A stretch of DNA of 7,929 nt from a virus (lineage: Duplodnaviria; Heunggongvirae; Uroviricota; Caudoviricetes): IMG/VR virus record IMGVR_UViG_2690316273_000016; one strand, 5' to 3'. Positions 1 to 7,929 of this stretch are shown here, one piece after another. Every line of letters begins with the position of its first letter. The stretch's first letter is position 1. The translations under genes were made by a program, and so were the position numbers. The notes below the pieces were generated by a model. It made no database searches. It saw nothing but the letters and a program-made list of their open reading frames with translations, and had not been told where the DNA came from.

Positions 1-1074
1 ATGGGAAGAGGGACACAACCTGAACGCGTTAAGCTGGGAAATTATCCCGATCTGAGTCTGAAAGCAGCCAGGGAAAAAGCCGCCCAGTGTCGCGCATGGC
101 TGGCTGAGGGGAAAAATCCACGCTATGAACTGAATTACACCATGCAGGAAGCGTTAAAGCCTGTAACGGTTGGCGATGCGCTCACCTATTGGCTTGAGTC
201 GTACGCAAAGGAAAAGCGCACAGATTACGAATCACTGAAAAGCCGGATCAATAAAAACATAATCACCAAAATTGGTGCTATGCCGCTGGATAAATGCGAG
301 CTACGGCACTGGCTGGCCTGCTTTGACCAGGTGGCAAAGCGAACACCTGTTACTGCCGGATTCGTGCTACAGACATGCAAACAGGCGCTTAAGTACTGCC
401 GGAGGCGGCGCTATGTAATCAGTAACGTTCTCGATGATCTGAACGTAGCGGACGTTGGGAAAAAACCGGATATAAGCGAACGTGTCTTAAGCAATAAAGA
501 GCTGGGCGAATTATTGCAGGCACTGGACAAAAAAATATTTTCCCCCTACTACATCGCGCTAATCCGCCTCCTGATTGTGTTCGGATGCCGGACGGTCGAA
601 CTTAGGTTATCGGAGATCGGCGAGTGGGATTTTACCGAAATGCTCTGGACCGTTCCGAAGGAGCACAGCAAAACGAAGGTAGCCATATTCCGGCCTATAC
701 CGGAAGCAATACTGCCGTTCATCACGCAGCTGGTGGAGCAGAACAGGCACACGGGCTTATTGCTGGGGGAAGTGAAACAGGAGGCCAGCGTATCGCAGTA
801 TGGAAGATTAGCGCACAGGAGGCTTAATCACCCCCACTGGTCACTGCATGACATCCGGCGCACCTTTACAACCATGCTGAACGATTTAGGCGTTGATCCG
901 CATGTCGTGGAGCAGCTTACAGGACACCAGATGCCAGGGATGCAACGAGTCTATAATCACTCCCGTTATCTGGATGCGAAACGCAATGCGCTGGATATGT
1001 GGACGGAGCGGTTAGGGATACTGGCGGGAGCACATGAAAACGTAACCGCACTACCAGCAGCCAGAAGAAAATAA
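1..1074 (+). CDS. int: P4-family tyrosine integrase (site-specific recombinase), 5'-partial
   Basis: Open frame runs from the window edge to TAA at 1072-1074. Translation carries tyrosine-recombinase catalytic features: HxxR box (WSLHDIRRTF), a downstream His (LTGHQ) and a C-terminal Tyr (RVYNHSRY). The visible N-terminus (KLGNYPDLSLKAAREKAAQCRAWLAEGKNP) aligns with an internal part of the P4-type N-terminal domain, so about 50 residues are probably missing; the ATG at 1-3 is likely an internal Met. Confidence 0.9.
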   Translation: MGRGTQPERVKLGNYPDLSLKAAREKAAQCRAWLAEGKNPRYELNYTMQEALKPVTVGDALTYWLESYAKEKRTDYESLKSRINKNIITKIGAMPLDKCELRHWLACFDQVAKRTPVTAGFVLQTCKQALKYCRRRRYVISNVLDDLNVADVGKKPDISERVLSNKELGELLQALDKKIFSPYYIALIRLLIVFGCRTVELRLSEIGEWDFTEMLWTVPKEHSKTKVAIFRPIPEAILPFITQLVEQNRHTGLLLGEVKQEASVSQYGRLAHRRLNHPHWSLHDIRRTFTTMLNDLGVDPHVVEQLTGHQMPGMQRVYNHSRYLDAKRNALDMWTERLGILAGAHENVTALPAARRK

Positions 1075-1449: not shown

Positions 1450-1638
1450 GTGTTAAGCACAGATCGCTTTATACGTGAAAAAGAATGTCAGCAACTTACA
1501 GGCCTGAGCCGCTCATGTCGGTATCGCCTGGAGAAGACCGGACAATTCCCATCACGGCGTAAACTCGGCGGTCGTTCCGTTGGCTGGTCTTTATCCGAAG
1601 TTCTGGCATGGAAGGACAGCCGCGAGGCAGTTCACTAA
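1450..1638 (+). CDS. alpA: AlpA-family phage transcriptional regulator (HTH)
   Basis: 62 codons, GTG start at 1450 four nt after GGGGG (1441-1445), stop TAA 1636-1638. The segment LTGLSRSCRYRLEKTGQFPSRRKLGGRSVGWSLSEVLAW fits the AlpA family pattern (TG-S--Y---G-FP---LG-RSVGW--EV--W). Position directly downstream of a P4-type integrase is typical. Confidence 0.85.
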   Translation: MLSTDRFIREKECQQLTGLSRSCRYRLEKTGQFPSRRKLGGRSVGWSLSEVLAWKDSREAVH

Positions 1639-1884
1639 TCAGGCTGGCGGCGCACCGCCGCCACCCATCCACTAACACAGAGATCTAACCATGAATACTG
1701 GATATACGCCCGAACAGGGGCGGGGCTTCGTTCGTCCTGGTGAAACTAAAAAGCCATGTTATCGGGTATTTTCAGGCATAAAAAAAGCGGCCCCGATAAG
1801 GAACCGCCTTTCTGAACAATTAACCTGCTGCGAAAAAAATGGATCAGTGCAGGGGAATTATATCAACCGTGTGGTGAAGCGCCA

Positions 1885-1922
1885 CTATTGCCGGATAACA
1901 AGCAAAACAAAGGCGACCGCAA
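1885..1922 (-). terminator. Putative intrinsic terminator for leftward transcription
   Basis: Stem GGCGACC (1902-1908) / GGTCGCC (1916-1922), loop gcaaaag. On the minus strand it is followed by TTTGTTTTGCTTG (complement of 1885-1901). No T-tract follows on the plus strand. Confidence 0.4.
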
Positions 1923-1998
1923 AAGGGTCGCCAGTGGGAACAAGGGAAAACAAAAGCATCGCCAACAATGCCACATTTGCGGCTGGTGGGCAATGCAA

Positions 1999-2187
1999 TC
2001 AGTCTGGTTCAGTTCGTTGCCATACCTGCAATGAGCGCTTTTCCCTGTACTCTTTAAGGAATTGCTCAAGGGCAAAAGCACATGGCGCGAATCTTTCTGA
2101 TTCATGCTCTATCTTTCTGCGCCGTCTTTTCCGTGCCGGTGATAATGTTTTGGTCAATTCTTTATCGGTCATTGTGTTGTCCTGCAT
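1999..2187 (-). CDS. Hypothetical small basic protein (57-62 aa), possible second gene of the leftward transcript
   Basis: Minus-strand ORF from the track; translation (…TDKELTKTLSPARKRRRRKIEHESERFAPCAFALEQFLKEYREKR…) looks more protein-like than the overlapping plus frame. Internal ATG at 2172 has an AGGA 7 nt upstream; the first ATG at 2187 has no clear SD. Lies between the upstream regulator gene and the 1885-1922 terminator. Weak support. Confidence 0.3.
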   Translation of the reverse strand: MQDNTMTDKELTKTLSPARKRRRRKIEHESERFAPCAFALEQFLKEYREKRSLQVWQRTEPD

Positions 2188-2229
2188 AGCAATGCGCCGT
2201 AATACCTTACACCACGGCGCTGGTGATGG

Positions 2230-2409
2230 TTATTCCTGCTCTTTGGCCTTGCGACGCTGGCGGTATTCAACTTCTCGCTTTAATGCTGCTGTTACAAACT
2301 GCCCTGTACTTTCACCAGGCATTTTTACCGCCTCAACATTGTTCATAACTTCATGCGGAACCCTTGCCGCAACTGTTTGTGATTTTGCGTTTACTGCTTT
2401 TGTTGCCAT
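2230..2409 (-). CDS. Small putative DNA-binding regulator (59 aa), possibly ribbon-helix-helix; repressor-like
   Basis: Absent from the ORF track (below 60 aa). Hand translation of the minus strand from ATG (complement of 2407-2409) to TAA (complement of 2230-2232): MATKAVNAKSQTVAARVPHEVMNNVEAVKMPGESTGQFVTAALKREVEYRQRRKAKEQE. SD AAGGGG sits 8 nt upstream. Putative strand-helix-GxS/T turn-helix layout is reminiscent of Arc/CopG RHH proteins. Divergent from a promoter region with three palindromic operators. Confidence 0.5.
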   Translation of the reverse strand: MATKAVNAKSQTVAARVPHEVMNNVEAVKMPGESTGQFVTAALKREVEYRQRRKAKEQE

Positions 2410-2438: not shown

Positions 2439-2511
2439 AGTATGCAGGAAAAAAAATAAGTGTTCAACACTTGACGTGTTTAACACCAGAGCTTAAATTG
2501 GTGTTCAACAC
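2439..2511. promoter_or_regulatory. Divergent promoter/operator switch: three palindromic operators GTGTT(C/T)AACAC over back-to-back sigma70-like promoters
   Basis: Operators at 2460-2470 (GTGTTCAACAC), 2476-2486 (GTGTTTAACAC) and 2501-2511 (GTGTTCAACAC, flanked g…c). Rightward promoter: -35 TTGACG 2471-2476, 17-bp spacer, -10 TAAATT 2494-2499. Leftward promoter on the minus strand: -35 TTGAAC (complement of 2462-2467), 17-bp spacer, -10 CATACT (complement of 2439-2444). Operators overlap both -35 elements and the rightward start site. Confidence 0.55.
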
Positions 2512-2608
2512 CTTGCTGATGCAAGGTGCAGAAACGACGAAACCCGGCAGTGCGCTAACACTAACCGGGCTTCTAACCACCAACGATAGAAAGCGTATCG
2601 AGGTAGCT

Positions 2609-2812
2609 ATGAGAAATTATACCAGACACCCGCAAGGGCGGGACTCGTACAACCTGAATAAATACATCTGGCGTTTTATCGCCCTGAGCACGGCACAACC
2701 GCGCGTGATTACCATTGAGGCCACCAGCGAACAGGAAGCGCGTCAGCAATCTCCTGATGGCTGCGTGATGGTATTCGCTGCCCGTATTCGCCAGGGGGAA
2801 CACCATGATTAA
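2609..2812 (+). CDS. Hypothetical small protein (67 aa), first gene of the rightward replication operon
   Basis: ATG at 2609 with GAGG 5-6 nt upstream; stop TAA 2810-2812 overlaps the next start (ATGATTAA). It is the only protein-like part of the 373-aa stop-free frame. An in-frame ATG at 2519 is possible but lacks an SD. Confidence 0.55.
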   Translation: MRNYTRHPQGRDSYNLNKYIWRFIALSTAQPRVITIEATSEQEARQQSPDGCVMVFAARIRQGEHHD

Positions 2813-3014
2813 CCTGTCACTTACCGACCTTAACCGCGTTCAGTTTCGTGAGAAATTTACCGGGCAGCTACTGGTCAATGTGGATAAAGGTCGCGTGGTG
2901 TGTAATTACCACCTGCCAGATGAAGCCATTGTCGCAACAAGGGAATCATTACAGGAACTCGCAGAACGTGCCGGAATGATTAATGCGAATATTCAGGGGG
3001 TGAGACATGCATAA
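2805..3014 (+). CDS. Hypothetical small protein (69 aa), paralog of the next gene
   Basis: ATG 2805 preceded by GGGG; stop overlaps the next start. Shares a motif block with the downstream ORF (TGQLLVNVDKGRVVCNYHL versus TGRVLVYLEKGRVKCQCRL). Confidence 0.65.
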   Translation: MINLSLTDLNRVQFREKFTGQLLVNVDKGRVVCNYHLPDEAIVATRESLQELAERAGMINANIQGVRHA

Positions 3015-3219
3015 TCATGAATCGCACTTACCTGTAGTGCTGAATGTGCCGTCAGATTATACGGGGCGCGTACTGGTGTATCTGGAAAAAGGCCGGGTTA
3101 AATGTCAGTGCCGTTTAATGGAAAACGAATTTATCAGCACTCTTGCGGGATTTTCTGAAATGCTCACTAAATCGGGTGTTAGTGCAGACCAGCTACGCGG
3201 GGGCGATTATGCGAAATAA
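3007..3219 (+). CDS. Hypothetical small protein (70 aa), paralog of the previous gene
   Basis: ATG 3007 six nt after GGGGG; overlaps the previous stop (ATGcaTAA). Shares the TG--LV---KGRV-C block with 2805-3014. Confidence 0.65.
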   Translation: MHNHESHLPVVLNVPSDYTGRVLVYLEKGRVKCQCRLMENEFISTLAGFSEMLTKSGVSADQLRGGDYAK

Positions 3220-3427
3220 ACATGATATTGAAGACCTGGCATTTGAAGCCCTGCACTCTGCGAAAAAAATCAGGGAAGTCGTCAATATGTGGATGAACAG
3301 CCTTAGCACCGATAAATCCGATAGCAGAGAAGAAATTCTTATTTCTTTGTTGTTAGACCTGGCAAATACACAGGTTTCTCTGACATCTGATATTGAGCTC
3401 GCCGCTAAAAAGCTGCCTCTGGAGTAA
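3209..3427 (+). CDS. Hypothetical small protein (72 aa)
   Basis: The track frame opens at 3143, but the ATG at 3209 follows a G-rich SD (gggggcgatt) and overlaps the upstream stop (TAA 3217-3219), matching the coupling seen elsewhere in this operon. Stop TAA 3425-3427. Confidence 0.5.
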   Translation: MRNKHDIEDLAFEALHSAKKIREVVNMWMNSLSTDKSDSREEILISLLLDLANTQVSLTSDIELAAKKLPLE

Positions 3428-3433
3428 AAAAAC

Positions 3434-3721
3434 ATGAAAAAGAAAAATTCTGGCTTTACTGCCAGCGGCCCCGCTCGGCCTGAAATCCGCCCCGGCGATA
3501 TTTTCCGGGATAACTATGGCGGCACGGTAACGATAAAAGGCGTGGCAGAACGGCGCATCACTTACCGCCGTGATGGCTACGAATATGACTGCGTGATGCC
3601 TGTTTATCAGTTCCGGCGTGATTTCACGCTGGTGGGCCATCGTAAAGCCGTAAATCAGAAACGTGCAGCAAGTCATATCCGCAAAATTCGTGAAATGCTG
3701 GTCGCAGGGGGTAAAAAATGA
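3434..3721 (+). CDS. Hypothetical basic protein (95 aa)
   Basis: ATG 3434 with GGAG 9 nt upstream; stop TGA 3719-3721 overlaps the primase ATG at 3718 (ATGA). Protein-like composition, basic C-terminus. Confidence 0.6.
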   Translation: MKKKNSGFTASGPARPEIRPGDIFRDNYGGTVTIKGVAERRITYRRDGYEYDCVMPVYQFRRDFTLVGHRKAVNQKRAASHIRKIREMLVAGGKK

Positions 3722-5532
3722 AACTGGCACCGAACGTAAAACAGCAGTCACGCGGCATAAAACACAAAGAAACAGAAGTCATTATTTTTGCGGGTAGTGA
3801 TGCCTGGTCACACGCAAAACAATGGCAGGAACATGACGCGCGTATGGCCGGAGATAATGAGCCTCCTGTGTGGCTTGGGGAGCAGCAGTTATCCGAACTG
3901 GATAAGCTGCAAATTGTGCCGGAAGGCAGAAAATCCGTGCGCATATTCAGGGCCGGATATCTTGCGCCAGTAATGATAAAGGCGATTGGTCAGAAGCTGG
4001 CGGCGGCAGGCGTACAGGATGCAAATTTTTATCCTGAGGGTATGCACGGTCAGGAGGTGCAGAACTGGCGCGGATATCTGGCCCGTGAGCGCCAGAATCT
4101 TTCTGATGGTCTGGTGATTCAGCTTCCTGTTAAGAAAAAAACAGAAGACAGCGCCGCACCACTGGCGCTTAACCAGATGGGAGCAAGCCAGCGCGGCGAA
4201 GTTCTCCTGGCACATTATGGCGGTGAACTGGCGATTCATGCCGACTCTGACACTGTTCACCATTACAACGGCGTTGTATGGGAGCCGATTCAGGATAAAG
4301 AGTTACAGCGTGCTATGGCGCAGATTTTCATTGATGCGGAGATCAGCTATTCGCAGAACGCCATTAAATCGGCGGTCGATACCATGAAGTTAAGTTTGCC
4401 TGTAATGGGGAATACAGCCCGTAACCTGATTGGATTCAGTAACGGGGTATTTGATACCAGAACAGGTAATTTTCGGGAGCATAACAAAAACGACTGGTTG
4501 TTAATTGCCAGTGAATTACCTTTCAGCCCACCAGCAGAGGGGGAAACGCTGGCAACACATGCGCCGAATTTCTGGAAGTGGTTACGCTGCTCGGTGGCAG
4601 AGAATGACCGCAAGACGGATCGCGTGCTGGCTGCATTATTCATGGTGCTGGCGAACCGGTACGACTGGCAGTTATTCATTGAGGTAACAGGTCCAGGGGG
4701 AAGTGGTAAAAGCGTGATGGCGGAGATTTGCACTATGCTGGCGGGTAAGGCCAACACAGTATCGGCAAGCATGAAGGCGCTGGAAGATGCAAGGGAACGC
4801 GCGTTAGTGGTTGGCTTTTCGCTGATTATCATGCCGGATATGACCCGCTACGCTGGTGATGGCGCAGGAATTAAGGCCATTACAGGCGGTGACAAGGTGG
4901 CAATCGACCCGAAGCATAAAGCCCCCTACTCAACACGCATTCAGGCGGTCGTGCTGGCGGTGAACAATAACGCCATGTCATTCAGTGACCGCAGCGGGGG
5001 GATCTCACGTCGTCGGGTGATATTCAATTTTTCGGAGGTTGTACCGGAGAACGAGCGCGACCCCATGCTGGCAGAAAAAATAGAAGGAGAGCTGGCGGTT
5101 GTGATTCGCCATCTGCTTACTCGTTTTTCTGACCAGGACGAAGCTAAACGCCTGCTGTATGAGCAGCAGAAATCAGAAGAAGCTCTGGTGATAAAACGCG
5201 AGGGCGATTCGCTGGTGGACTTCTGTGGCTATCTCATGTCGTCGGTAATGTGTGATGGTCTGTTAGTGGGTAATGCCGAAATTATTCCGTTCAGTCCGCG
5301 CAGGTATCTTTATCACGCCTATCTGGCATATATGAGGGCACACGGATTCGGTAAACCTGTAACACTGACGCGCTTCGGTAAAGATATGCCGGGGGCAATG
5401 GCGGAATATGGCAGGGAGTATATAAAACGGAAAACGAAGCACGGTTTGCGTTCAAATGTGACACTGACAGAGGATTCAGAAGACTGTATGCCATCATGTG
5501 CATCGGTCACAAATGACGACAGCAAAAATTAA
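3718..5532 (+). CDS. P4-family phage/plasmid primase C-terminal domain protein (D5-like SF3 NTPase/helicase); element replication initiator
   Basis: 604-aa ORF. Walker A GPGGSGKS (…FIEVTGPGGSGKSVMAEI…). Flanking blocks (NGVFDTRTGNFREH…, …ITGGDKVAIDPKHKAPYS…, …RRRVIFNFSEVVPENERDPMLAEKI…) match the conserved layout of P4-family primase C-terminal / D5_N-type proteins. SD GGGGG precedes the start. Confidence 0.88.
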   Translation: MKLAPNVKQQSRGIKHKETEVIIFAGSDAWSHAKQWQEHDARMAGDNEPPVWLGEQQLSELDKLQIVPEGRKSVRIFRAGYLAPVMIKAIGQKLAAAGVQDANFYPEGMHGQEVQNWRGYLARERQNLSDGLVIQLPVKKKTEDSAAPLALNQMGASQRGEVLLAHYGGELAIHADSDTVHHYNGVVWEPIQDKELQRAMAQIFIDAEISYSQNAIKSAVDTMKLSLPVMGNTARNLIGFSNGVFDTRTGNFREHNKNDWLLIASELPFSPPAEGETLATHAPNFWKWLRCSVAENDRKTDRVLAALFMVLANRYDWQLFIEVTGPGGSGKSVMAEICTMLAGKANTVSASMKALEDARERALVVGFSLIIMPDMTRYAGDGAGIKAITGGDKVAIDPKHKAPYSTRIQAVVLAVNNNAMSFSDRSGGISRRRVIFNFSEVVPENERDPMLAEKIEGELAVVIRHLLTRFSDQDEAKRLLYEQQKSEEALVIKREGDSLVDFCGYLMSSVMCDGLLVGNAEIIPFSPRRYLYHAYLAYMRAHGFGKPVTLTRFGKDMPGAMAEYGREYIKRKTKHGLRSNVTLTEDSEDCMPSCASVTNDDSKN

Positions 5533-5544
5533 ACTTATGGAATA

Positions 5545-5775
5545 ACTGTTCACCACTGTTCACCCTGTTATAAATATCTTTTATATCAGTACATTATAGG
5601 GTGAACAGTTATTTGTGAACTGTTCACCAAACTATTCACTGTTCACCTTTTTGATTATTTATTGAGCTTTAAGGGTGAACAGTGGTGAACAGTTGGTGAA
5701 TAGTTTTTGTGAAACTGTTCACCCCTTAACATTATGAATAAAAAGGGAAAATCTCAAAAGGTGAACAGGTGAAGG
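5545..5775. repeat. Iteron array in both orientations (CTGTTCACC / GGTGAACAG) with AT-rich spacers; putative replication origin
   Basis: Forward TGTTCACC at 5547-5554, 5557-5564 (two tandem 10-bp ACTGTTCACC units), 5621-5628, 5640-5647, 5716-5723, plus variant CTATTCACT at 5632-5640. Reverse GGTGAACAG at 5600-5608, 5674-5682, 5684-5692, 5760-5768, variant GGTGAATAG at 5695-5703, half-site GTGAAC at 5615-5620. Lies directly 3' of the primase gene. Confidence 0.6.
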
Positions 5776-5819
5776 GTTAAAATGCAAAAATTTTATTTTA
5801 TTGCTGTGAGGTAAAGCCT

Positions 5820-6065
5820 GTGACAACGAAGCACGCAAAAAAACCACAATCTCACGCCCTTGATTTGACAGAACACTGGCTGAGGGTGGCGATAAAAATC
5901 ATCGACCGCAACGCGGGAGAAGGGTACGCAAAAGCACATCCCGAACTGATAAGCGCATTCATGACCACGGCGGCAGCAAACTTTGCCACGCTGACAGAAC
6001 GGGAGATTGCCGAAGCGGAACAGGTGACAACCATCAACGTTAAAACCGGAGAGCAGACAGCATGA
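5820..6065 (+). CDS. Hypothetical protein (81 aa), first gene of the accessory operon
   Basis: GTG start at 5820, GAGGT (5808-5812) 7 nt upstream; stop TGA 6063-6065 overlaps the ssb ATG at 6062 (ATGA). No family recognised by eye. Confidence 0.5.
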   Translation: MTTKHAKKPQSHALDLTEHWLRVAIKIIDRNAGEGYAKAHPELISAFMTTAAANFATLTEREIAEAEQVTTINVKTGEQTA

Positions 6066-6487
6066 CAGCACAGATAGCGGCTTACGGGCGGCTGGTGGCT
6101 GACCCGCAGTTAAAGACCACCAGCAAAGGGACACAAATGGCGATGGCGAGTATGGCGGTTCCCCTGCCGTGCAGCCAGGCAGATGACGGAACGGCGACGA
6201 TGTGGTTATCTGTCCTGGCGTTTGGCAGACAGGCCGACGCACTGGCAAAACACCACAAAGGCGAACTGGTGAGCGTGGCGGGTAACATGCAGGTGAGCCA
6301 GTGGACAGGCCAGAACGGGGAAACGCGGCAGGGCTGGCAGGTTATTGCAGACAGCGTAATCAGTGCGCGAACGGCGCGACCGGGCGGCAAAAAAGGTCAA
6401 CAGGGCCAGGCCACTGACGCACTGAACAGGGCAAAACAACAGACAAGCCAGCACGATGACCCGTACGGGGATAACATACCGTTTTAA
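6062..6487 (+). CDS. ssb: Single-stranded DNA-binding protein (SSB), OB-fold with acidic C-terminal tail
   Basis: 141 aa. N-terminal and core blocks parallel canonical SSB (IAAYGRLVADPQL resembles VILVGNLGQDPEV; MWLSVLAFGRQADALAKHHKGELVSVAGNMQVSQWTGQNGETRQGWQVIADSV resembles the SSB L45/OB core). A low-complexity G/Q-rich linker precedes a C-terminal …DDPYGDNIPF matching the SSB partner-binding tip (D-I-P-F). Confidence 0.85.
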   Translation: MTAQIAAYGRLVADPQLKTTSKGTQMAMASMAVPLPCSQADDGTATMWLSVLAFGRQADALAKHHKGELVSVAGNMQVSQWTGQNGETRQGWQVIADSVISARTARPGGKKGQQGQATDALNRAKQQTSQHDDPYGDNIPF

Positions 6488-6523
6488 TTCACAACAGCGA
6501 ACAGAGTAATTACAGGGGAAGGC

Positions 6524-7054
6524 ATGACAACGCTGACCATTAACCGGAAGCCGAAAGGCATTTACGGCACGCCGCAGAAAACGACGCAGGCGGCGCAAGA
6601 GCAGGATAAAACCACATCGGCGCATAAAGTGATACCCGGCAATCAGAACGCACAGCAGAAGCCCACAGGGGCGACACCGTGGCAGCATATGACCAAAAGG
6701 CAGCGCAAAAACCGCCGACGCGTTAACCGCCTCACTGAGATGTGGCCTGACTTATTCAGCCATAAAGCACCGAAGCCGCTTAAGGTGGGGATATTCGACG
6801 ACCTGATGCAGGATATCGCCGTCAGGGGGCTGGCATTCGGGCCGGGGGTATTACGTGCGACGCTGGCATCCTATGCGCAGTCTCCGCGCTATTACCGCGC
6901 CCTGATAGCTGGTGGCGCACGTTACGATCTGAAAGGCCAGCCATGTGGGGAAGTGACACCACAGGAACAGCAGGAGGCAGAAACACGGCTGATGGTGCTG
7001 AATGAGAAGCACAAGCGCCAGCGCCGGGCAGCAAAGGGGGATACATGCCAGTGA
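6524..7054 (+). CDS. FinO/ProQ-domain protein (putative RNA chaperone)
   Basis: 176 aa. Basic, low-complexity N-terminal half, then a block MWPDLFSHKAPKPLKVGIFDDLMQDIAVRGLAFGPGVLRATLASYAQSPRYYRALIAGGARYDLKGQPCGEVTPQEQQEAE that aligns by eye with the F-plasmid FinO core (WWPGLF…GIRDVLLEDVAQR…[40 protein letters not shown]). Stop overlaps the next ATG. Confidence 0.8.
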   Translation: MTTLTINRKPKGIYGTPQKTTQAAQEQDKTTSAHKVIPGNQNAQQKPTGATPWQHMTKRQRKNRRRVNRLTEMWPDLFSHKAPKPLKVGIFDDLMQDIAVRGLAFGPGVLRATLASYAQSPRYYRALIAGGARYDLKGQPCGEVTPQEQQEAETRLMVLNEKHKRQRRAAKGDTCQ

Positions 7055-7293
7055 CATTTGAAGAAGTTCAGCAACATAAAAAGCTTCATGGTTTTGATGA
7101 TCTGGAAACCACGACAGCAAAAAAATATCGTCGGTTGCTTTCTTCCGATGCGTTATTTTTTGTGGATCATCATGATTTTCTGCGTAGCTCACTGACCGGG
7201 GAAATTTTCGCAACCAACCGTGAGCAGGTGGAAGCGATGATCGAATATTTGTGGAAAATAAGACGCAGAATGCGGGAGCCAGTGAAACAATAA
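7045..7293 (+). CDS. Hypothetical protein (82 aa), last gene of the accessory operon
   Basis: ATG 7045 four nt after GGGGG (7036-7040), overlapping the upstream stop (TGA 7052-7054); stop TAA 7291-7293, followed immediately by an intrinsic terminator. No family recognised. Confidence 0.6.
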   Translation: MPVTFEEVQQHKKLHGFDDLETTTAKKYRRLLSSDALFFVDHHDFLRSSLTGEIFATNREQVEAMIEYLWKIRRRMREPVKQ

Positions 7294-7302
7294 AGCGATA
7301 AA

Positions 7303-7329
7303 GGCCCGGATTTTTTCCGGGCCTTTTTT
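7303..7329 (+). terminator. Rho-independent terminator closing the accessory operon
   Basis: Stem GGCCCGGA (7303-7310) / TCCGGGCC (7316-7323), loop ttttt, then TTTTTT (7324-7329), ten nt after the stop of the last ORF. Confidence 0.75.
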
Positions 7330-7347
7330 CAGGTTTTGTAAATTATT

Positions 7348-7377
7348 TGTTCGTGGTTGTTCCAGGTTGTTCGGTGA
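7348..7377. repeat. Three tandem 10-bp units TTGTTC-N4 (ttgttcgtgg / ttgttccagg / ttgttcggtg), inverted copy of the 1121-1170 array
   Basis: Read directly; its reverse complement (caccgaacaacctggaacaaccacgaacaa) matches 1148-1166. Sits just upstream of a candidate -35 at 7390. Confidence 0.5.
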
Positions 7378-7389
7378 TTCTGGCTGATG

Positions 7390-7417
7390 TTTACATACTG
7401 ATTTTTATGTATATGTT
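7390..7417 (+). promoter_or_regulatory. Candidate sigma70-like promoter for the capsid operon
   Basis: -35 TTTACA (7390-7395), 16-bp spacer, -10 TATGTT (7412-7417). Predicts a leader of about 140 nt before the ATG at 7567. Weak, sequence-only. Confidence 0.3.
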
Positions 7418-7566
7418 GGCGTGTGGCACTCAGACGTGAGCCGCCACAATGCCGCCTGACCCCCTGCGCGATGCCGGGTTGATCTGCGAGATGCCGAGAG
7501 TGTCGGGCGGCGCTCCCCCCGTGTTGGTTTCACGTCCTGAATCTTAACCAATGCGAGAAAACCTTC

Positions 7567-7929
7567 ATGAAGAAATTAATCGAACTCCGCCAGCAAAAAA
7601 CCGCCCTGAAAAACCAGATGCGATCCCTGCTGGAAAAAGCCGACAGTGAAAACCGCAGCCTGAACGATGACGAAGGCAAACAGTTTGATGAACTGCGTGC
7701 AAAAGCCGATTCCCTCGACACAGAAATTTCCCGCCTCGAGTCTGTGGCTGATGAAGAACGTAACCAGCCTGGTGTTCCCGTCGAAGATAAAATCACCAAA
7801 AATGAGCTACGCTCTTACATTCTGACCGGGGAAACCCGCAACCTGTCCGGCAGTGTTCCGGCTGATGGTGGTTATACGGTTATCCCGGAACTGAACAGAG
7901 AAATTATGCGTCAGCTTTCTGATGAGTCG
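7567..7929 (+). CDS. HK97-family major capsid protein, N-terminal 121 aa (3'-partial, runs off the window)
   Basis: Not in the ORF track (no stop inside the window). ATG at 7567, open in frame to 7929. Translation: a charged coiled-coil-like N-terminus (MKKLIELRQQKTALKNQMRSLLEKADSENRSLNDDEGKQFDELRAKADSLDTEISRLES…) followed by …PADGGYTVIPELNREIMRQLSDES, matching the characteristic GGYLVP-E---I--L motif near the start of HK97-fold capsid proteins. Confidence 0.7.
   Translation, partial: MKKLIELRQQKTALKNQMRSLLEKADSENRSLNDDEGKQFDELRAKADSLDTEISRLESVADEERNQPGVPVEDKITKNELRSYILTGETRNLSGSVPADGGYTVIPELNREIMRQLSDES

Follow-up and report, generated by a model that had tools for sequence, protein, structure and literature searches.

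Two adjacent small proteins encoded in the early operon of a phage satellite, here called A and B, very probably belong to the GfoA/GftA/FsoA/Rem family of prophage antirepressors (PHROG 340), as judged by sequence comparison. Their genes lie in a stretch of 7,929 nucleotides from a virus of the Caudoviricetes (IMG/VR record IMGVR_UViG_2690316273_000016), referred to below at its full length as the window. The protein family and its mechanism are already known; what is new is the satellite context, a capsid-forming PICI (cf-PICI). The literature searched yielded no account of antirepressors of this kind from a PICI or cf-PICI. The only item joining PICI, antirepressor and Gifsy was a review, and the accession, PHROG and Pfam identifiers were absent.

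Relationship of A and B to characterized antirepressors

A sequence-only reading of this DNA had described adjacent ORFs of 69 and 70 codons that overlap by 8 nt and share a motif block, and this description holds. The stop of A and the start of B share the 8 nt at 3007-3014 (ATGCATAA), and the motif F/YTG-Q/R-hLV-x-h-D/E-KGRV-x-C is common to both products. In a single pairwise BLASTP comparison, A and B were 29% identical over 52 aa, a significant similarity (E = 5e-9). Each also matches PHROG 340 over its full length (A, E = 5.1e-23; B, E = 3.7e-20), and because both match this profile end to end, their paralogy is well beyond chance. Purifying selection acts on both genes, with dN/dS values of 0.24 for A (against the O157 orthologue) and 0.19-0.59 for B. 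Orthologues elsewhere are intact, and neither gene is a pseudogene.

A and B are small single-domain proteins without a DNA-binding or catalytic motif. The AF2 model of A (pLDDT 77) consists of a beta-hairpin (residues 21-27/30-37) and a helix (46-55). Pfam and NCBIfam scans of A and B returned no domain, Pfam run on all 57 aligned family members assigned no family, and structure searches yielded no informative match. The sole result of a PDB sequence-profile search, an RNF4 motif, was spurious. A HicB-like beta-beta-beta-alpha-beta fold was considered for these proteins, and we do not claim it. When A was used as the tblastn query against phages, nothing was found; phage homologues were reached only with more consensus-like family members as queries. 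A scan of the genome contigs returned a single locus.

Characterized members of the family include the Salmonella phage proteins FsoA of Fels-1, GfoA/GfhA of Gifsy-1/3 and GftA of Gifsy-2 (Lemire, Figueroa-Bossi & Bossi 2011, PMC3121763). The characterized antirepressors hold short, non-cleavable CI-type repressors (GfoR, GtgR) in a stable A2B2-like complex. The repressor leaves its operator once bound, the antirepressor itself does not bind DNA, and non-cognate repressors of other prophages are hit as well (PMC3121763). FsoA, which is encoded in an early-left phage operon, acts on a heterologous prophage and has no role in the induction of its own phage (PMC3121763), and its action therefore sets a precedent for trans-acting use. 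The E. coli K-12 member is Rem (b1561, PF27490), an antirepressor of the Qin prophage that was discovered through its homology to GfoA and FsoA and frees the DicA-controlled promoter dicBp 165-fold (Ragunathan et al. 2023, PMC10448788).

We take Fels-1 STM0898.2n to be FsoA because it begins and ends with the residues that the published primers encode, le154 (MNSQQMM) at the N-terminus and le162 (...EAGIRFEEISNVG) at the C-terminus. Like A and B, FsoA matches PHROG 340 (E = 1e-26). By BLASTP, B is 39% identical to FsoA over 59 aa (E = 2e-13) and A is 32% identical over 41 aa (E = 2e-8). Both proteins also find E. coli Rem (A, E = 1e-3; B, E = 1e-4), and B finds a GfoA-like protein that phage SEN34 encodes in its dinI-flanked slot (E = 2e-4). 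A family HMM, built from the 57-sequence alignment and used to scan related loci, gave scores of 89 bits for FsoA, 30 for Rem and 27 for the GfoA-like protein. In hhalign, the family profile reached 96.3% against Rem and 96.4% against a profile of the GfoA-like phage protein together with Gifsy-2 GftA; similarity to GftA alone was not significant. Identity of A and B to the validated antirepressors is low (28-39%), and the C-terminal 'AGY-V-PP' consensus is degenerate in both. The precomputed Pfam tag PF27490 'Rem' is carried by the relatives P0153, P0059 and P0069, the tagged proteins being the Bro-N fusion P0153 and also two fusion proteins, and is not found on the A-type or B-type clusters.

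FsoA, GfoA, GftA and the two satellite proteins fall in the same size range (69-83 aa), and none has a DNA-binding motif. The core of Rem is homologous to A and B, with which it shares a 'VENG' motif in the beta-hairpin and a C-terminal 'EFV-SL--L-E---AG' helix. Rem differs in having an extra N-terminal hairpin and in being a single gene near hokD in a prophage, whereas the shorter A and B belong to the operon of a satellite. Unlike FsoA, GfoA and GftA, A and B are borne by a cf-PICI, occur as two adjacent diverged copies and are coupled to an Icd-like gene. Since the family includes characterized antirepressors, the earlier label of 'unknown function' is superseded. The same reading had also proposed a regulatory factor, which was the right direction.

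The early operon and its island

In the most similar complete genomes this island is present at 99% identity, with HK97-type capsid, protease, portal, connector and terminase genes after it. Because these 99% identical islands continue into capsid and terminase genes, we consider the element a cf-PICI, of the EcCIEDL933 kind described previously (10.1101/2022.09.08.507074). Blocks related to the window are present in about one third of complete E. coli genomes. In addition to the features in Table 1, the window encodes, among others, SSB and a ProQ/FinO-like gene.

Table 1. Coordinates of features in the window
Feature	Position	Strand	Description
Integrase	1-1074	+	partial
AlpA	1450-1638	+	
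YlcI/YnfO-family gene	2230-2409	-	divergent
Promoter-like site	2471-2499 (region 2461-2511)	+	TTGACG-17-TAAATT, consensus match only
Structured leader	2506-2608	+	fold z-score -3.7 (+ strand), -4.9 (- strand) against shuffled controls
Icd-like gene	2609-2812	+	67 aa; NCBIfam NF033153 phage_ICD_like, E = 1e-19
Exchangeable cassette (A + B + F4)	2801-3426	+	between Icd-like stop and DUF4222 start
Paralogue A	2805-3014	+	69 aa ORF; PHROG 340; A-type clade, very probable Rem/FsoA/GfoA small antirepressor family
Paralogue B	3007-3219	+	70 aa ORF; PHROG 340; B-type clade, same very probable family
Third cassette gene, family 'F4'	3209-3427	+	72 aa; helical; weak phrog_2196 match
DUF4222 gene	3434-3721	+	Pfam DUF4222, E = 1e-25
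D5/P4-type primase-helicase	3718-5532	+	Pfam D5_N, DUF5906, Pox_D5; TIGR01613
Iteron array	5541-5770		about 10 copies, both orientations

The gene order is Icd-like gene, A and B, joined by 8-nt ATGNNTAA overlaps. The end of the Icd-like gene and the start of A have 8 nt in common (ATGATTAA), with a Shine-Dalgarno sequence inside the end of icd, and translational coupling at this junction is therefore likely. A GGGG(G) Shine-Dalgarno-like run precedes each start within the 3' end of the preceding gene, and the junctions on either side of A are alike (CAGGGGG-N6-7-ATGNNTAA). The third gene of the cassette, F4, is unrelated to A and B and has orthologues in three related loci (L002, L010 and L011). 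A 373-aa ORF (1691-2812), which continues in frame to the end of the Icd-like gene, was rejected as an artefact.

The promoter-like site is the sole sigma-70-like promoter upstream of the icd-A-B operon. Three GTGTT(C/T)AACAC palindromes flank it, and the palindrome/promoter region is divergent from the YlcI/YnfO-family gene; by its sequence this region looks like the operator/promoter of the operon. In the predicted fold of the leader, the last hairpin masks the Shine-Dalgarno sequence of the Icd-like gene. An Rfam search of the leader matched no C4- or CI-type RNA at E<=1, and a symR-like match on the minus strand was below threshold. By analogy with P1 c4 or P4 CI, control of the operon at the RNA level is possible. 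No LexA box (CTGT-N8-ACAG, up to one mismatch) lies near 2400-2810, and the five LexA-type sites in the whole window are no more than expected by chance. The operon differs in this respect from the SOS-wired Gifsy module and resembles the early operon of FsoA, which acts in trans on the repressor of another element. Because FsoA is also free of LexA control, a LexA box is not needed for this antirepressor family.

The arrangement has likenesses in both P4 and P1. P4 epsilon is, like A and B, a small protein encoded in the early-left operon of a satellite, between the cI/Icd-like region and the primase, and the P4 cI region, epsilon and orf151 are joined by 8-nt overlaps identical to those at A and B. 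Epsilon is annotated as a 'helper derepression protein' and derepresses the helper P2 prophage; it works by binding the P2 repressor. Neither BLASTP nor HMM comparison detected similarity of A or B to P4 epsilon, and none was seen to P4 Cnr, alpha or ORF151, so the likeness to epsilon is an analogy and not membership of one family. In the c4-icd-ant arrangement of P1/P7 immI, an Icd-like gene likewise stands directly before the antirepressor gene or genes and is coupled to them, and Ant synthesis in P1 requires icd expression. Unlike P1 immI, the leader of A and B contains no C4 RNA by Rfam, and A and B have no Pfam match of any kind.

The cassette is followed by two conserved replication genes, the DUF4222 gene and the primase-helicase. 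The N-terminus of P4 ORF151 (L012, 7440-7895) is weakly similar to the DUF4222 protein (BLASTP, E = 0.035), which hints that this gene, located before the primase, has a P4 counterpart. Immediately 3' of the primase-helicase gene, an AT-rich region holds the iteron ACTGTTCACC / GGTGAACAGT and is probably the satellite replication origin; in Rfam the array gave spurious miRNA-family matches. After alpA, several relatives (L001, L004-L009) carry an AntA/AntB or BRO-N antirepressor-like gene, and a partial pseudogene is annotated in the equivalent region of the AST240 island. Given these relatives, window positions 1640-2230 are probably a decayed remnant.

Cassette exchange and distribution of the family

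Outside the cassette, the window and the AST240 cf-PICI (L024) are nearly identical (99.6% over positions 1-2800 and 99.2% over 3427-7929). Precisely in place of 2801-3426, AST240 has an unrelated 459-bp cassette of small genes (L024 8801-9259). This comparison indicates recent modular exchange at conserved ...GGGG-N-ATGNNTAA junctions. A cassette of A, B and F4 that is 99.6% identical to that of the window occurs in strain AST85, and the A + B arrangement as found here is present in only 5 of 5,426 complete E. coli genomes.

In the related loci scanned with the family HMM, the A/B domain occurs once, twice or three times per island. An O157 island (L010) has A alone and another locus (L002) has B alone. 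Five islands (L004-L008) encode a 121-aa protein in which two domains are fused (an A+C fusion), and in L009 and L003 the fusion is accompanied by a B-type gene. At least three other unrelated small-gene families occupy the same slot, and chimeras occur. A neighbour-joining tree, made from short sequences and of low resolution, agrees with the identity values. It places A beside the N-terminal domains of the two-domain fusions and B in a separate clade of 66-70 aa proteins, with the phage homologues in between. For each of A and B, islands without the other gene contain orthologues of 88-94% identity, and A-type genes stand beside differing B alleles. On these comparisons, A and B are two old paralogues carried in a unit whose exchange takes place at conserved gene junctions.

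The cassette is adjacent to a RepA-family helicase in L023 and to a D5/P4-type primase in the window. Near-identical cf-PICIs, among them a 99% identical island with the same primase, have no member of the family at all, so the satellite life cycle does not depend on it. Phage-encoded members are found in early-left operons and not close to replication genes. An exhaustive profile search recovered only 88 representative proteins. Some of the matches, long repeat proteins and MORN_2 proteins, have only an 'FTG...NG' hairpin motif in common with the family and were set aside as spurious or analogous. The 88 include two fusions to other domains. In P0150 (L016, L017), on an AlpA-containing satellite-like contig, the family domain is fused to a DnaG-type CHC2 zinc ribbon, and in P0153 (L018), on a phage contig, it is fused to Bro-N beside lysis genes.

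Possible functions of the two proteins

On balance, and with some reserve, we favor the reading that A and B are two diverged antirepressors in the early operon of a cf-PICI that would derepress resident or helper prophages. Activation of the satellite operon would supply A and B, which would bind dimers of short, non-cleavable CI-type prophage repressors of the GfoR/GtgR/DicA class. The bound repressors would quit their operators, and resident or helper prophages would become derepressed. In this role A and B would be the functional equivalent of P4 epsilon and P1 Ant. The presence of two paralogues, or of two fused domains, might provide two repressor specificities, or a pseudo-dimer that fills both sites of a repressor dimer. 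An optional cassette that is swapped between islands is what would be expected of a helper-range determinant. That A and B bind a repressor, which repressor this would be and how the satellite would benefit, we infer.

Several observations fit this proposal. The 121-aa two-domain fusions in the same slot would suit the action of two antirepressor units on each repressor dimer; for such a natural fusion, the AF2 model (pLDDT 64, pTM 0.38) was too poor to reveal how the domains pack. The Icd-like gene upstream of A and B fits the gene order of P1 immI and P4, and the accessory, replicase-independent nature of the cassette also counts in favor of an antirepressor. Arguing against it are the low identity to validated members together with the degenerate C-terminal consensus, the dispensability of the family in near-identical cf-PICIs, and the description of PICIs as awaiting helper induction and not causing it. 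The known cf-PICI helpers are HK106 and HK446.

A further observation comes from E. coli strain AST85 (L001 / L022, NZ_AP043644.1, approximately 1,247,000-1,283,000). Here a truncated copy of the satellite, extending from int to the middle of the primase and fused to gpJ, sits in the late region of a Qin-like prophage. This prophage carries a DicA-type repressor, dicB, hokD and its own Rem homologue. The repressor (135 aa, WP_001003379.1) is 56% identical to DicA (E = 1e-50) and is also similar to GtgR. The occurrence of the cassette together with a DicA-type repressor fits the antirepressor reading, as a single circumstantial case in a decayed element. The arrangement resembles the helper-embedded configuration reported elsewhere (PMC10111431). 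DicA-type repressors covering at least 80% of the full length were found in 29 phage records.

A broader version of the proposal is more doubtful, and we put it forward tentatively. According to this version, cf-PICIs and related enterobacterial satellites would not merely await the induction of their helper but would actively derepress resident prophages that have DicA/Gifsy-type repressors, by means of a swappable Rem/FsoA-type cassette to which an Icd-like gene is coupled. Such helper derepression would be like that of epsilon but of an origin independent of P4, and in it the identity and number of domains (one, two, fused or three) would set which prophages are awakened.

Alternatively, A and B could be members of the antirepressor family that have been retargeted to another HTH regulator or protein and act in interference or regulation without inducing a prophage, a possibility that we regard as unlikely though still to be reckoned with. 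Partners could include the satellite's own regulator at the GTGTTCAACAC operators, the regulator of another satellite, or a helper or host protein. The family diversifies fast, varies in copy number, forms chimeras and is exchanged as a cassette, as is typical of arms-race or specificity genes. The degenerate C-terminal motif in A and B, the absence of FsoA from the induction of its own phage, and the operator-like palindromes and divergent YlcI/YnfO gene adjoining the operon promoter would agree with such retargeting. Set against it, all four characterized relatives act on CI-type prophage repressors, and no result obtained here points to another partner.

We consider it very unlikely that A and B assist replication as accessory factors alongside DUF4222 and the primase-helicase, for example through origin or helicase loading, or through control of copy number in the manner of P4 Cnr. 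The earlier placement in a replication operon was accurate as to position, since A and B do belong to an early operon just upstream of DUF4222 and the satellite primase-helicase, and the fusion of the relative P0150 to a zinc ribbon of the DnaG type would suit a role in replication. No result links A and B to replication: the same cassette accompanies two unrelated replicases, of the RepA family (L023) and of the D5/P4 type (window), and a 99% identical island with the same primase does without the family. Moreover, the phage members lie far from replication genes, and A and B have no similarity to P4 Cnr or alpha.

Least probable of all is a recent tandem duplication in situ with one copy now drifting or redundant, and the local duplication proposed earlier is not supported: A and B are indeed adjacent, similar in length and bounded by similar junctions, but they are only 29% identical, fall into different clades, are each found alone elsewhere (L010, L002) with close orthologues, are both under purifying selection, pair in various allelic combinations or as fusions, and are swapped as one block, and for these reasons the pair did not arise by recent duplication in place.

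If A and B are active antirepressors, as we favor, PICI-type satellites could trigger the induction of helper or bystander prophages. The cassette would then be a directly testable determinant of satellite-helper range, for which Rem/DicA reporter assays already exist, and widespread 'hypothetical' small genes of satellites (PHROG 340) would gain a functional label. Should this prove true, it would bear on how prophage induction, the release of toxin phages and the spread of satellites are coupled in E. coli.
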